From the NCBI GenBank assembly GCA_963675745.2, contig CAXXWX010000019.1:32001-96000 (forward strand): a stretch of DNA of 64,000 bases. Reading direction: 5' to 3'. This DNA is from Phycisphaerae bacterium. GTDB lineage: Bacteria > Planctomycetota > Phycisphaerae > UBA1845 > Fen-1342. Position 1 is the first letter of the stretch; every line of letters starts with the position of its first letter. Shown here in pieces: positions 12,886-20,022 of the stretch. A program made the position numbers and the translations under genes. Under the pieces are notes generated by a model. It was not told where the DNA came from. It worked only from the letters and a program-made list of their open reading frames with translations, and did not search any database.

Positions 12886-14946
12886 ATGTCCAAGGCAGAC
12901 ACAATCCTATCGATCGTCAATAACCACCTCGACACCGAGCAATTCAAGCAGCGGCACTGGGAGGGCACGTTTCGGGAATACCTCGACATGGTTGCCCAGG
13001 ACCCGCGCATTGCCCGCAATGCGTTTCAACGCATCTATGACATGATCATGCACTTCGGCACCGACAAGTACAAGCTGATGAAGCAGGATCTGGTCCACTA
13101 CAAGTTCTTCGACGACCCCTTCGAAGAGGGCGCCGATGCTATCTACGGGCTTGACACCGCCATTATGCGCCTCGTCGAGTGCTTCAAGTCCGCCGCCCAC
13201 GGCTACGGCACCGATCACCGTATCCTGCTGTTGCACGGGCCGGTCGGCTCGAGCAAAAGCACCATCGCGCGGCTGTTGAAGAAAGGCCTCGAGTACTACT
13301 CGCGGATCGATGACGGCGCTCTCTACACGTTCGCCTGGAAGGTGGCCGGCGCTGACGGCAAAGTCGATGTCCAGCCCTGCCCGATGCACGAGGACCCGCT
13401 GCGTCTGATCCCGACGGCGGCGCGCAAGGACGTACTGGCTTCGATCAACGCCGACCTGCCCACCGACAAGCAGGTCCGCATCGAAGGCGAGCTCGATCCT
13501 TTCTGCCGCAGGATGTTTCAAGACCTGCTCGTCGAGTACGGCGGCGACTGGCACAAGGTGATGGAGCATATTACCGTTCGCCGCCTGGTGCTCTCGGAAA
13601 AGGACCGCATCGGCGTCGGGACGTTCCAGCCGAAGGACGAGAAAAACCAGGACTCGACCGAGCTGACCGGCGACATCAATTACCGCAAGATCGCCCAGTA
13701 TGGCTCTGACTCAGACCCGCGCGCGTTCAACTTCGATGGTGAGCTGAACATCGCCAACCGCGGGTTGTGCGAGTTCATCGAGGTGCTCAAGCTGGATGTG
13801 GCCTTCCTGTATGACCTGCTCGGCGCGTCGCAGGAGCACACCATCAAGCCGAAGAAGTTCGCGCAGACCGATATCGACGAAGTCATCATCGGCCACACCA
13901 ACGAACCCGAATACAAGAAGCTCCAGAGCAACGAGCTCATGGAGGCGTTCCGCGATCGCACGATCAAGATCGACATCCCGTACAACACGCGTCTGGATGA
14001 CGAAATCAAGATCTACGAGAAGGACTTCGGCAAGGACAAGGTGCGCGGTATCCACATCGCGCCGCACGCCGTCGAGATTGCCGCCATGTGGGCCGTGCTG
14101 ACGCGCCTGGCCGAGCCCAAGAAAGCCGGCCTGACGCTGATGCAGAAACTCAAGCTGTATGGCGGCAAGAGCGTGCCGGGCTTTACCGAGGATTCGGTCA
14201 AGGAGCTGCGCGACGAAGCCCCGCGCGAGGGTATGGACGGCGTCAGCCCGCGCTACATCCAGGACAAGCTATCCAACGCGCTGGTCAGCGAGCAGGCCCA
14301 GCTCGACCGCGGTATCAATCCCTTTATGGTCATGAACGAGCTCGAAAGCGGCCTCGACCACCACAGCCTGATCACCGACGAGGAGCAGAAGAAGCGCTAT
14401 CGCGAATTGCTCAGCGTTGTGCGCGAGGAATACGAGGAAATCCTCAAGACCGAGGTTCAGCGGGCCATCTCCGCCGACGAGGACGCCATCACGCGGCTGT
14501 GCGCGAACTACATCGACAACGTCCGGGCCTATACGCAGCACGAAAAGGTCCGCAACAAGTACACCGGCAAGGACGAGGAGCCGGACGAGCGCCTGATGCG
14601 GGCGATCGAGGAGAAGATCGAGATCGCCGATGCGCGCAAGGACGACTTCCGCCAGGAGATCATGAACTACATCGGCGCGTTGGCCCTCGACGGCAAGAAG
14701 TTCGAGTATCACACCAACGCCCGGCTGCACCGCGCGCTGGAACTCAAGTTGTTCGAAGACTCGCGCGATACGATCAAGTTAAAGAACATCGTTTCAGGCG
14801 TGGTCGACGACGAGACCCAAGCCAAGATCGACGTCGTCAAACAACGCCTGATCAAGTTCTTCGGCTACAACGAGACCAGCGCCACGGACGTGCTGAACTA
14901 CGTCGCCAGCATCTTCGCGCGCGGTGATACGAAGCAGGGGGAGTGA
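12886..14946 (+). CDS. prkA: PrkA/YeaG family serine protein kinase (AAA+)
   Basis: [65 protein letters not shown] precedes ATG 12886. Confidence 0.95.
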
Positions 14947-14950
14947 GGGG

Positions 14951-15022
14951 GGCAGAAGGCAACGAGGCAACCAGGCAACCAGGGAACAGAAGGGAACAAC
15001 AGGCGGCTCGGCAGCCAGGCGG
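14951..15022 (+). repeat. Degenerate 8-10-mer tandem tract (GGCAACNA), left arm of inverted repeat
   Basis: GGCAGAA GGCAACGA GGCAACCA GGCAACCA GGGAACAGAA GGGAACAACA GGCGGCTC GGCAGCCA GGCGG, directly after the prkA stop. Confidence 0.9.
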
Positions 15023-15044
15023 TGGGCTGAAAGGGGGTGTGGTT

Positions 15045-15428
15045 GTGAGCGCGGAGATTCGGTCGTTTCGGGATCTTGTGGTGTGGCAGAAGGCGATGGA
15101 GTTGTGCCAGGGCGTGTACGGCATATCGCAGCGGTTTCCGCCCGATGAACGGTTCGGCCTGACCTCCCAAGTCCGACGCGCGGCTGTGTCGGTGCCATCG
15201 AACATCGCGGAGGGCTATGGCCGCAAACGCAAGCAGGATTACCTGCGTTTCCTGCATATCGCGCTCGGATCGCTCTGCGAACTTGAGACACAAGTGCTGC
15301 TGGCCATTCGCCTGGAATTCACAGACGACGATTCGGCTGTGCCGATTACGGGTCTGATCCGAGATGTTGATCGCCTGCTGAGCGCGCTGATCCGCTCTCT
15401 GAGCCGAACATACAAGGAGCCCACCTGA
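15045..15428 (+). CDS. Four-helix bundle protein (23S rRNA IVS protein / Avd-like family)
   Basis: SFRDLVVWQKAMEL, FPPDERFGLTSQVRRAAVSVPSNIAEGYGR, FLHIALGSLCELETQ. Probable GTG start at 15045. Confidence 0.95.
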   Translation: MSAEIRSFRDLVVWQKAMELCQGVYGISQRFPPDERFGLTSQVRRAAVSVPSNIAEGYGRKRKQDYLRFLHIALGSLCELETQVLLAIRLEFTDDDSAVPITGLIRDVDRLLSALIRSLSRTYKEPT

Positions 15429-15507
15429 GAATGTGTGGCAGAGAACAGCCAATGCGATGGCTACCGCCGACCACTGCCCGAAACGAGCGCACCATGCCGC
15501 GTCGTTT

Positions 15508-15570
15508 TTCTGTTGCCTTGTTGCCTTGTTGCCTTGTTGCCTTCTGTTGCCTTCTGTCGCCTGAGCCGCC
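15508..15570 (-). repeat. Tandem (TTGTTGCC)n tract, right arm of inverted repeat
   Basis: TTCTGTTGCC TTGTTGCC TTGTTGCC TTGTTGCC TTCTGTTGCC TTCTGTCGCC TGAGCCGCC; reverse complement of the 14951-15022 tract. Confidence 0.9.
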
Positions 15571-15571
15571 C

Positions 15572-16669
15572 ATGATCGCCAAAATCGAAAAAGACCACCA
15601 ACGCTTTCGCCAGATCATAAAAGGCAAGATCCGGAAGGACTTGCGCAAGTTCCTTACGCGCGGCGAGCTCATCGGCAAGGAGGGCAAACATCTCGTCAGC
15701 ATCCCTTTGCCCGGTATTGATCTGCCGCACTTCCGCTACGGCGACAACAAAAACACCGGCGTCGGGCAGGGTGATGGCAAGGCCGGCGAAAAAGTCGATG
15801 GCGAGGGCGAAGGCGGCCTCGGCGGCGACGAGCCAGGAAAGCACATTCTCGAAGTCGATGTCAGCCTCGACGAACTCGCCGACATCCTCGGCGAAGAGCT
15901 CCAGCTCCCGCGCATCGAACCCAAGGGCCGGCACAACATCACCACCACGCGCGAACGCTACTCCAGCATTCGCCAGACCGGACCCGAGTCGCTGCGCCAC
16001 TTCAAACGCACCTTTCGCCGGGCACTGCGACGCATGATCATGACCGGCGCCTACGACCCCGACGACCCCGTCATCGTCTTCGAGCGCGGCGACAAGCAGT
16101 ACCGCAGTTGGAAGACGACCAAAAAGCCACAGTCCAACGCCGTCATCGTCTACATGATGGATGTATCCGGCTCGATGGGGCACGAGCAGAAGGAGCTGGT
16201 GCGGCTCGAAGCGTTCTGGATCGATGCCTGGCTGCGGCGCAATTATGAAGGCATCGAAAGCCGTTATATCGTCCACGACGTGAACGCCGCCGAGGTTGAT
16301 CGCGAGACGTTCTTCCGCATCCGCGAGGATGGCGGCACCAAGATCAGCAGCGCGTTCAAACACGCCCGCGCACTGCTCGACGAGCACTACGCCCCGGACG
16401 AGTGGAATGTCTACCTGTTCCACTTTTCCGACGGCGACAATTCGTCCGAAGCCGACTCGCGCGAGTGTTGCGCGATTCTCAAGGACCACCTGCTGCCGTT
16501 CAGCAACCAGTTCGGCTATTGCCAGGTGGCCAGTGCCTACGGCAGCGGCGCCTTCATCAACGTTCTCCGCGAGCACCTCGCCGACGCCGAAAACATGGTC
16601 ACGACGCGCGTGAACACCAAAGACGATATTCTGGACAGCATCAAGGCGTTTTTTGCGAAGGGGAGGTAG
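15572..16669 (+). CDS. DUF444 family (YeaH/YhbH) vWA-like protein
   Basis: DHQRFRQII, VSIPLPGIDLPHFRYG, EELQLPRIEPK, MMDVSGSM, GGTKISSA, WNVYLFHFSDGDN. Usual partner of prkA. Confidence 0.94.
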   Translation: MIAKIEKDHQRFRQIIKGKIRKDLRKFLTRGELIGKEGKHLVSIPLPGIDLPHFRYGDNKNTGVGQGDGKAGEKVDGEGEGGLGGDEPGKHILEVDVSLDELADILGEELQLPRIEPKGRHNITTTRERYSSIRQTGPESLRHFKRTFRRALRRMIMTGAYDPDDPVIVFERGDKQYRSWKTTKKPQSNAVIVYMMDVSGSMGHEQKELVRLEAFWIDAWLRRNYEGIESRYIVHDVNAAEVDRETFFRIREDGGTKISSAFKHARALLDEHYAPDEWNVYLFHFSDGDNSSEADSRECCAILKDHLLPFSNQFGYCQVASAYGSGAFINVLREHLADAENMVTTRVNTKDDILDSIKAFFAKGR

Positions 16670-16810
16670 ACAGCGACAGGAGCCAACGCCCGCTTGACGT
16701 CCAGCTAGGCGGAATGGCGTTCCCTCGTGACGCCGATGAGTTCCAGGAGGTGGCTTGTGAACCGGACGGATGATACGATCGTATAGGTGTGAGAGGAGGC
16801 GCCGATCCAG

Positions 16811-17599
16811 ATGAACGCACAGGCGGCACTAACGATCGATCCGACGCAGAAGTTCCCGCACCTGGACCGGGCGCCGATTGTCGAGGCGGTGATCCACTGG
16901 CGCGCCAGAAGCGAAAAAGCACATCCGCGCGACGAACTGCTGAGGCAACTAAAAGAGAGGCTACCGGGCTACCCCGCAGCGCGATCCCAGCAGGAGATAC
17001 AGTTCGAGACACAGATTGGCCCTGAGGGGGCCGCTCAAGCGCAACGCGCGCGATGGGATGGCTTCCGCTTCGAATCAACGGACCGGCGGCATATCGCGCA
17101 GTTCACGCACAACGGGTTTGTCTTCAGCCGGGTCACGCCTTACGAGGACTGGGACCGCTTCGCCGCTGAGGCCAAGCGGTTGTGGCAAATCCACGTCGAG
17201 TTGGCCCAGCCGTCAGAGATTGAACGACTGGGCGTGCGTTTCATCAATCGCATCGTTCCGATTGACTTGGCCAAGCTGGACGAGATACTCACGCTGCCGC
17301 CGCAATCGCCGAACGGGCTGTCGTTGCCGATCGGGGAATTCCTGCATCGCAATCTGTTCGATGTGCCTGGGCACGCGTATCGCGTTCATGTGATCCAGAC
17401 GAGCCAGCCGCCCGCGCCGCCAGAGACGGACGCGCTCAGCCTCATCCTGGACCTCGACGTGTTCACGACGAAGACCATTGAGTTGGATGATGCGACGTTG
17501 GACGCCCGTTTGTGCGAAATGCGCTGGTTGAAGAACATGGCTTTCTATTCGCTCCTCACCGAGCAGACAATCGAACGATTCAAGGAGGCCAGGCCATGA
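16811..17599 (+). CDS. TIGR04255-like protein
   Basis: 262 aa with APIVEAVIHWR, PYEDWDRF, RLGVRFINRI and LDLDVF, a pattern recognised from this sporadically distributed family. Confidence 0.82.
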   Translation: MNAQAALTIDPTQKFPHLDRAPIVEAVIHWRARSEKAHPRDELLRQLKERLPGYPAARSQQEIQFETQIGPEGAAQAQRARWDGFRFESTDRRHIAQFTHNGFVFSRVTPYEDWDRFAAEAKRLWQIHVELAQPSEIERLGVRFINRIVPIDLAKLDEILTLPPQSPNGLSLPIGEFLHRNLFDVPGHAYRVHVIQTSQPPAPPETDALSLILDLDVFTTKTIELDDATLDARLCEMRWLKNMAFYSLLTEQTIERFKEARP

Positions 17600-18054
17600 G
17601 GGAGGCAGTCATCATTCGCGGCGTCAGCGGTGTGGCCCAATACATCGAAGACGCAACGCGCCGTGACCGCCGCTACCTCCACAAGTCCTCGGCGTTCGGT
17701 ATTCAGAGTGTGCTGCGCGACGAACTTGCTGAGGCTTGGGAAGAGTGCCATCAACCCAATTGGGACGGCTATGATGCATTGCCCGTCTCACGGGATGCGC
17801 TGCGGAACATGTACACGTTCTTGGAGGCAATGCCGCTCGGATTCCCTCGTCCGACGATCGGGGCCGATCCGCATGGTCACCTCTCGGTCGAGTGGTATCG
17901 AAGCCCGCGACGCGTGCTGTCCGTGAGCGTCAGTGACGACGACCTGTTGCACTATGCCGCACTACTTGGCTCCAACAGCACGTGTGGAACTGAGACGTAC
18001 TTCGGCGAGGTTCCCGAGAGCATTCTCAACCTGGTGCGGCGGGTCTACTCATGA
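17596..18054 (+). CDS. Hypothetical protein with NWDGY motif
   Basis: ATG 17596 overlaps the upstream stop (ATGA) and has an AAGGAGG RBS. Motifs PNWDGYDALPVS and PTIGADPHGHLSVEW. Confidence 0.8.
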   Translation: MREAVIIRGVSGVAQYIEDATRRDRRYLHKSSAFGIQSVLRDELAEAWEECHQPNWDGYDALPVSRDALRNMYTFLEAMPLGFPRPTIGADPHGHLSVEWYRSPRRVLSVSVSDDDLLHYAALLGSNSTCGTETYFGEVPESILNLVRRVYS

Positions 18055-18482
18055 TCGACTCGCGTAGCGTGCCGGACGTTGAGTCGGACGAGGTACTCGC
18101 CCGGTTCATTCTCTTTAGCAGACACATCCGTAGCAGCGACGACACGATTAGACCCGACGCATTCGTCCCGCATCCCCATGACGAACTCTCTGTGACGCGC
18201 CATCGCGATGCGACGGAGGACGAAGTTTGGGGCGCGGGCAGGGCAGTTGCAGAAATACAGCAACGGACACTGCATGGGCGCGGCGATGTCATCGCTGACA
18301 CCTTCATGAGGCAGGGCCTGGCGACTCAGGCAGCGCCTGTCTTGGGGCATGCCGCCCTGCCGGACAACCCGAACCACGCCAACGTGATCGGCTGGCCAAA
18401 GGACGACAAGGGGCGGCAGAGGTTACTCGCGCTAAGAGTCGCGCAAGAAGCCAATCTGGTTCGACATTCCATTCTGTCGTAA
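18051..18482 (+). CDS. Hypothetical protein, possibly ADP-ribosyltransferase-like fold
   Basis: ATGA overlap with the upstream gene. 143 aa with EVLAR, AF, LSVTR and NPNHANVIGW. The fold call is an inference. Confidence 0.65.
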   Translation: MIDSRSVPDVESDEVLARFILFSRHIRSSDDTIRPDAFVPHPHDELSVTRHRDATEDEVWGAGRAVAEIQQRTLHGRGDVIADTFMRQGLATQAAPVLGHAALPDNPNHANVIGWPKDDKGRQRLLALRVAQEANLVRHSILS

Positions 18483-19885: not shown

Positions 19886-19982
19886 ACAGGCTTCGAGGGC
19901 GGATGCCGCGCCGATCGCCTTGGAGGTCTGCGTGTGCAAACGCGTCGGCTTAGCCGGTGCCACAGAGGGCGACACCACCCAC

Positions 19983-20015
19983 CCTGTGGCCTTGTGGCCC
20001 TGTGGCCTCGTGGCC
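19983..20015 (-). repeat. 8-mer tandem tract (GGCCACNR)x4
   Basis: Plus strand reads CCTGTGGC CTTGTGGC CCTGTGGC CTCGTGGC C, just downstream of the amylase stop. Confidence 0.8.
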
Positions 20016-20022
20016 TTTTCAC

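Follow-up and report, generated by a model that had tools for sequence, protein, structure and literature searches.

A four-helix-bundle gene between inverted octamer arrays at the prkA-yeaH junction of a Phycisphaerae bacterium, and its match to repeats dispersed through the genome

The 64,000-nt stretch of a Phycisphaerae bacterium analyzed here (the window; assembly GCA_963675745.2, contig CAXXWX010000019.1, positions 32,001 to 96,000) carried, between the host genes prkA/yeaG and yeaH (DUF444), a cassette in which a four-helix-bundle (FHB) gene was enclosed by two arms of tandem octamers in inverted orientation. In the lineage of this gene, the unit that makes up the arms predicts the repeat dispersed through the genome. 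We give an even chance to the reading that the cassette is a gene-for-repeat pair of the RAYT/REPIN kind without a transposase, in which a predicted pentamer reads the AG-phased repeat in RNA. The window's own genome is labelled G000; other G numbers designate further genomes, and L numbers designate loci. The features of the locus, in window coordinates, were as follows.

12886..14946, + strand: prkA/yeaG, upstream host gene (PF08298 and PF06798 above cut-off; TGA at 14944-14946)
14947..14952, + strand: G6 leader between the prkA stop and the left arm, with predicted pairing to 15547-15554
14953..14999, + strand: left (AG-phased) arm, tandem AGGCAACN octamers and degenerate AGGGAAC units
15002..15018, + strand: GC-rich stretch that can pair with 15554-15570 (alternative fold by the yeaH start)
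15045..15428, + strand: FHB gene, PF05635/TIGR02436, 127 aa (GTG at 15045; TGA ending at 15428)
15429..15507, + strand: spacer, where two orthologous cassettes hold an HNH nuclease gene; possibly a remnant of such a gene
15508..15563, + strand: right (CT-phased) arm, tandem TGTTGCCT octamers and two 10-nt units
15572..16669, + strand: yeaH/DUF444, downstream host gene (PF04285 and NF003711 above cut-off)
19982..20016, no strand assigned: second AGGC-type octamer array of the window, gene-less (G000:C19:51982-52016)

The arms (14953-14991 and 15508-15546) formed 35 Watson-Crick pairs and one G:U pair (14964/15535) over 39 positions, with three mismatches (14972, 14980 and 14984). An earlier note on this DNA had given exactly this complementarity, and its placement of the left arm 6 nt past the prkA stop was exact as well (the TGA ends at 14946). 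The 8-mer units that it saw in both arms hold for the core (AGGCAACN / NGTTGCCT, spacing 8), longer units being found at the arm ends. It also had the right tract run up to the DUF444 ATG; the repeat-like tract does come within about 10 nt of it, while the 39-nt arm ends 25 nt before. The fold of the window locus had a z-score of -3.6 (0 of 20 shuffles equally good), and the arm duplex reached -73.9 kcal/mol, whereas 500 left-arm shuffles had a mean of -41.7 and a best of -56.4. With a mean pairing probability of 0.91 for the 39-nt register and an outer helix of 19 pairs without interruption, the stem was the dominant predicted fold. The long-range stem on which the earlier note had asked for a folding check was thus predicted, here and in 6/6 orthologous cassettes, where it reached the last prkA codons and ended anywhere from 40 nt before the yeaH ATG to on the ATG itself. 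The alternative fold (15002-15018/15554-15570) was weaker (-26.5 kcal/mol); as a structure hiding the yeaH start it was rejected, being far weaker than the main stem and with no conservation seen. No Shine-Dalgarno was visible before yeaH, as had been noted earlier, but this is not special to the site, since relatives with an empty site had no obvious one either (by eye).

The G000 genome displayed 184 arrays of period 7 or 8, of which 46 were of the AGGC octamer type, and 4 PF05635 genes. When octamers were counted as (AGGCAACN)x3 with up to 1 mismatch, the three carriers of the cassette lineage among the first 61 genomes scored 87, 97 and 42, and all others at most 8. Extended to 72 family genomes, the count gave G081 98, G028 97, G000 87 and G031 42 for the carriers, then G080 42, G073 14 and at most 10 for the others; it was 0 in 57 of the 72, and the four carriers were within ranks 1-5. 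Most G000 matches (83/87) lay outside the locus, and the carriers were still in the top five without the cassette's own matches (G081 87, G028 89, G000 83, G031 24). The pattern had already been seen when 35 more genomes were added; they yielded one new carrier, G081, which then took the top score. The naive probability of such a match between carriers and repeats is 5e-6, a value that overstates the case because kin are non-independent. In a reciprocal comparison of five genomes picked by their FHB arms, (AGGCAAR)x3 was found 275, 28, 0, 1 and 0 times and (AGGCAYY)x3, in the same order, 0, 0, 60, 24 and 35 times; exact (AGGCAAR)x3 was absent from all 151 genomes of the window's order (0/151). 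The reversed octamer, used as a control pattern in the 61-genome comparison, had 13 matches, all in G012, which probably are its related AGGCACG arrays.

The window cassette is one copy of a family-wide design. The FHB sample comprised 153 loci and 155 distinct genes, 150 of them with enough flank to be scored; four of the loci added no gene (three duplicates and one distant copy missed by the query), and kin of the query were over-represented (about 70 of 120 matches, plus the best 80 of 562). At a stem-flank threshold of a complementary-flank score of at least 16, complementary flanks were obtained for 93/150 FHB genes, compared with 5/300 size-matched genes of G000 and 2/300 swapped flanks, and two of the five control matches were Y1 transposase genes with ordinary REPs. 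Arm units varied among loci, as 7- and 8-mers nearly all writable AG-first, and both arms co-varied from locus to locus. This co-variation supports the earlier note, which had proposed to look for compensatory changes in such tracts. Some single loci were also observed. An FHB gene with short ATGCAGA/TCTGCAT arms lay between atpG- and atpD-like genes in G000 (C1:217529-217834; by eye), and one with different heptamer arms was apparently at the same atpG/atpD-like junction in G081 (L259). In G080 (L243, contig C332), a methyltransferase-like gene apparently contained a heptamer-armed FHB gene, and another array lay downstream.

Arrays in G000 were oriented relative to genes, as judged from rough in-house gene calls. 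Within 20 nt after stops the mRNA reads the AG arm in 52/60 arrays and the CT arm in 8, and within 40 nt before starts it reads the CT arm in 23/25 and the AG arm in 2. The first AG was supplied by the TAG stop itself in the cassettes of three carriers and in one relic, and a G-run preceded many AGGC-type arrays of G000 (upstream 14-mers compared). Inverted array pairs numbered 45, of which 32 had loops of at most 200 nt. Except at one duplicated locus and for short matches to the unit, these 32 loops were unrelated; as they are not mutual copies, the arrays look built in place rather than pasted. Identical hairpins and loops on two contigs (C2:109635 and C22:3324) are probably a duplicated assembly stretch. 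Another pair of arms in G000, made of GAATGCA heptamers (C12:72007-72842, L200), enclosed a gene that resembles a RAYT by its motifs (judged by eye; without a Pfam match at E 0.001) and has REP copies of its own.

The four-helix-bundle family call made earlier was borne out by profile scores well above cut-off (PF05635, 121.4 bits against 33.8; TIGR02436, 118.4 bits against 24) and by the fold. An alignment-based AlphaFold model of the FHB product had four helices (pLDDT 94.7) and superposed on Xcc0516 (PDB 2GSC) with TM 0.87 and rmsd 0.7 A, and on Avd with TM 0.75. Passages on the structure (PMC4990558) present Xcc0516 as a pentamer, and the 2GSC entry has 5 chains; by this likeness, a ring of five FHB protomers is predicted. 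Five polar residues were invariant (Q42, R45, N53, E56 and E79). The gene is under purifying selection (dN 0.12-0.23 against dS 1.2-2.8 among carriers, one pair being saturated). A search for residues that follow the unit showed no residue-level code: one column, Y/F at 67, tracked unit position 3, but it follows a deep split of the tree. Sharing of a unit within protein clades was dropped as a sign of recognition, the clades having proved site-bound.

In the gene-for-repeat reading, the predicted FHB pentamer would bind RNA by the AG-phased repeat of the arms around its gene, a recognition proposed from Avd, and the same protein would recognize dozens of gene-less arrays of its unit across the genome. 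Pairing of the arms would move the insert out of the way, with no cut required. Recognition could seed or preserve arrays, as one RAYT gene does for its REPINs, here without a transposase domain, the ring either aiding a host enzyme that writes new units or making the arrays worth keeping. As transcription produces the AG arm before the CT arm, protein bound there would be in competition with folding of the stem, and this might result in self-regulation. Reading RNA with a ring in this way would resemble TRAP. A more general form of the proposal is tentative, and we lean somewhat away from it: FHB "intervening sequence (IVS) proteins" may be the readers, perhaps with host polymerase or reverse transcriptase as writers, of bacterial 7-8-nt repeats, each paralogue having its own unit and the repertoire of repeats following that of paralogues. 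If true, bacteria would have a transposase-free counterpart of RAYT-REPIN acting on mRNA, with the 23S IVS as only one of its insertion sites.

Several observations weigh against recognition of the repeat by the protein. More than a third of the scored FHB genes (57/150) were under the stem threshold, and the invariance of Q42, R45, N53, E56 and E79 would fit an enzyme as well. Protein and arm unit agreed across loci (Mantel rho 0.24), which does not show recognition because the protein lineage is inherited along with its site and unit. For the window's lineage there were only four contrasts with congeners or nearest kin, and the genomes are incomplete metagenome-assembled genomes; G080, a non-carrier, was as rich in octamer arrays (42) as one carrier. 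With other units the correspondence is one-sided: a cognate FHB gene mostly goes with many arrays, but arrays are also plentiful where none was found. GGGAACR arrays had no cognate FHB found alongside them in G018 (252), G036 (39), G012 (36) and G026 (30), and AGSCACGR had at least 15 matches in 7 genomes in which no cognate FHB was found. The stronger statement that G036 has arrays without any FHB fell, as the Pfam model finds FHB matches there. At dnaE2, one protein lineage carried several units, both 7- and 8-mers. The arms could be mere copies of the dominant repeat of the genome.

In a rival explanation, which we consider unlikely, the FHB gene is a passenger in a hairpin. Arrays would sustain themselves by slippage and gene conversion, as REP-like stabilizers of mRNA, their loops would be safe landing places, and the arms around FHB genes would be converted to the dominant unit. 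Consistent with this, arrays far outnumber FHB genes in G000 (184 against 4), most inverted pairs have short loops (32/45), gene-less hairpins occupy the dnaE2 site in G032 and G012, and arrays occur without a cognate FHB match. Other cargo is found too, namely the RAYT-like gene in the GAATGCA pair and, at the prkA-yeaH site of G015 and G018, other genes that follow arm-like tracts. A passenger would, however, leave unexplained the excess of arms at FHB genes (93/150 against 5/300), the AGGCAA unit in 6/6 genomes of the lineage, and the retention of that lineage only where its rare unit abounds.

The cassettes nested in dnaE2 bear on whether the insert has to be excised. In G000 (C21:30026-30607, L199), dnaE2 contained an FHB gene in the +2 frame, flanked by GGGAACR heptamer arms in nearly perfect inverted repeat, and the dnaE2 frame was open for 1337 codons across it. 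At least 17 genomes had this site occupied. Among 34 dnaE2 loci, the 26 with both anchors were counted (8 without the right anchor were left out): 17 had an FHB gene, 7 had 72-114 nt between the anchors and 2, in G032 and G012, had gene-less hairpins. All 17 FHB inserts (531-834 nt between anchors) had a length divisible by 3 and no stop in the host frame, whereas premature stops broke 2 of the 17 nested FHB genes. A Fisher test comparing open frames of nested and non-nested copies was set aside as circular. These copies share ancestry, and their lengths vary widely yet stay in frame. Ribosomes probably continue in the host frame across the stem, and the open in-frame inserts imply that excision is not required at dnaE2. 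As overlapping genes that occur naturally, the in-frame copies have stayed open in many genera. A second insertion site in dnaE2 was used in G017 and G012, and a gene-less AGGC-type octamer array ran in frame in the 3' part of dnaE2 in G000 (C21:29200-29310), encoding an EATRQQG-like peptide repeat.

The earlier note had also suggested an mRNA intervening sequence, in which RNase III cuts the stem, frees the gene in the loop and processes the prkA-yeaH message in the manner of 23S IVSs. The resemblance stands: the 23S IVS of Coxiella, in the passages of PMC4990558 that describe it, has a gene of the same family and 2-3 heptamers, with the RNase III cut at the first repeat. Moreover, G000 encodes RNase III (rnc), the outer helix offers 19 unbroken pairs, and cutting between genes could be harmless. 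The excision itself is unneeded where this is testable, in 17/17 dnaE2 cassettes: ribosomes likely read through the open inserts, 2 of the 17 FHB genes being stopped prematurely, and an obligatory cut without ligation would destroy that message. RNase III may still cut at the intergenic prkA-yeaH site; we regard the intervening-sequence account as improbable overall. Candidate transcript joints (14944->15584 and 15545->14956) were rejected, as they appeared only at 85% likeness and not at 95%, in runs without a recorded library type, and most likely come from other organisms or arrays. The single RNA run, which shared 0.06 of the sequence words, gave one contig aligned in full at 95% likeness over 19.5 kb (236 nt within the FHB gene, 15065-15300, 4 differences); it was set aside as evidence because this stretch had itself been used to find the run.

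Occupancy of the prkA-yeaH site was examined at 47 yeaH loci, 27 with a prkA end upstream and 20 without, of which 2 were at contig ends and 18 had at least 1.5 kb of upstream DNA without a prkA end. Of the 27 adjacent junctions, 3 had an FHB gene and 4 had 0.5-1 kb of other DNA; the remaining 20, among them those of all three congeners, had gaps of 9-149 nt. The FHB gene is therefore an insertion relative to most kin (3/27 junctions), as claimed earlier, and family searches agreed that the cassette has no transposase. In 61 and then in 72 genomes, the closest FHB proteins (69-71%, the next reaching 57%) were at the same site in G028, G031 and G081; two more distant ones (57-59%, L121 and L125) were also between prkA and yeaH, with heptamer AGGCAAG arms. 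The lineage had one copy per carrier and one shared site across 6 genomes, and retained the AGGCAA unit in 6/6. Near-identical copies of the cassette, as expected of an insertion sequence or MITE, were absent from G000, whose other FHB proteins were at most 51% identical; the empty junctions were strongly diverged. On the yeaH tree, FHB presence at the site required 3 changes, 0/200 bootstrap trees had one origin, and the dS of FHB was not below that of the flanking genes. In G073 and G080, congeners of carriers, arm relics were found at the empty junction. The cassette reads as an old, site-bound resident that was lost repeatedly, older transfers being possible; recent horizontal transfer of FHB among the four carriers finds no support in dS. 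Tied to one site and under purifying selection, the cassette is not one that moves about the genome, which weakens the insertion element pictured earlier.

The loops of 2/6 orthologous cassettes also held HNH genes (L015:844-1323 and L125:1782-2246), of which there was none in the window cassette; the HNH of G031 was above the PF01844 cut-off and 42% identical to that of L125, and the L121 cassette held the beginning of an HNH gene. Homing, by which an ancestral cassette with FHB and HNH was copied into empty prkA-yeaH alleles and most copies then lost the nuclease, would account for these genes and for the patchy distribution (3 changes, no single-origin bootstrap tree). It is nonetheless a poor prospect, given a synonymous divergence of FHB no lower than that of flanking genes, arm relics in congeners that point to loss, and dispersed arrays that it leaves unexplained; the HNH could also be a defence or toxin nuclease. 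The earlier note proposed as well that the stem, by placing the prkA stop close to the yeaH start, keeps the two genes translationally coupled. This is very improbable: 6/6 predicted stems do span from the last prkA codons to a point at most 40 nt short of the ATG, or on it, but prkA-yeaH coupling is not conserved (empty gaps of 9-149 nt in 20 genomes, 4 junctions with 0.5-1 kb of other DNA, no prkA end in 20/47 loci, 18 of these over at least 1.5 kb), and arms are placed in this way genome-wide, even after convergent genes.

Other observations concerned the surroundings of the locus. Downstream of yeaH (window 16811-18482) lay a TIGR04255-family gene and two open reading frames without a Pfam match, and not spoVR. 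An Rfam search of 14000-17000 had 0 matches at E<=1, a promoter scan returned 0 sites and no terminator was found on the + strand. The prkA-yeaH junction of G008 (L012; 526 nt) had REP-like palindromes and no FHB cassette. Where yeaH was split from prkA (L013, L021, L022, L025, L027 and L029), a -10-like hexamer (TATAAT, TACAAT or TAGAAT) often stood 8-15 nt before the ATG (by eye), which suggests leaderless messages.

Compared with known systems, the cassette is not an rRNA IVS by its location, not a RAYT by its protein and not a diversity-generating retroelement (DGR). With rRNA IVSs it shares a long terminal stem around an open reading frame of the S23p family. The IVS of Coxiella burnetii, as the relevant passages of PMC4990558 describe it, has an S23p gene in the loop of a stem and was acquired once, then inherited vertically; it has in common with the window cassette a same-family gene in the loop and tandem heptamers on the 5' side, strain-variable in copy number there. 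The window cassette differs in lying in a protein-coding operon, flanked by prkA and yeaH instead of in an rRNA gene. Further differences here are that each arm consists entirely of a tandem array, that copies inside genes leave the host frame open and that the unit recurs across the genome. The gene is also under purifying selection, whereas the Coxiella reading frame is described as decaying (PMC4990558, same passages).

The resemblance to REPIN-RAYT systems (PMC5581495) lies in a single-copy, site-bound and mostly vertical gene, in inverted repeats that are frequent elsewhere in the genome and in gene-less inverted doublets between genes. The FHB gene, in contrast, is not a Y1/HUH transposase and no such family match was obtained at the locus; the Y1 (PF01797) genes of G000 lie elsewhere, with their own ordinary REPs. 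The repeats here are tandem 7-8-mers and not fixed palindromes, and the hairpin loops are not mutual copies. With the DGR protein Avd, which binds flipped-out RNA bases between protomers according to passages of bioRxiv 10.1101/2023.10.23.563531, the FHB product shares the fold and five-chain entries, but the Avd models were far under cut-off (bAvd 22.3 against 40 bits; NF033474 25.9 against 80) and RVT_1 matches were found only on contigs C7, C16 and C26, none at the locus, so that a DGR was rejected. Three of the reverse transcriptase matches of G000 (C7:128376, C26:80903 and C26:611707) had identical scores and 469-aa frames, and are probably copies of one mobile intron.

Intergenic heptamer repeats, for which no protein partner is given, are described from several phyla in the relevant parts of two papers: GGGAATC in Xanthomonas and GGGGA(C/T)T in Nostoc (PMC4692102), and TAACTGA in Beggiatoaceae (PMC4679880). 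In the former, as here, they form intergenic tandem arrays and inverted pairs, with the purine strand after stops and its complement before starts, and TAACTGA before starts (PMC4679880) has the polarity of the G000 arrays; the unit of the window cassette is an octamer, unlike any of these. The main texts of both papers do not mention an FHB-family protein ("helix", "helix bundle", "intervening" and "S23" occur 0 times), and no literature tying the family to dispersed repeats, or to repeat-flanked cassettes outside rRNA, was found (subscription journals and supplements being outside the scope).

What would be new in kind is the match in trans between a gene and dispersed repeats. Proteins of PF05635 have solved structures and, to our knowledge, no known function. 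The match names a candidate ligand for each FHB protein, with non-cognate controls from the same genome, and predicts which genomes hold which repeat. It would recast the rRNA IVS that bears an open reading frame as one case of a wider element, and would join a large unexplained protein family to a long-unexplained class of bacterial repeats.

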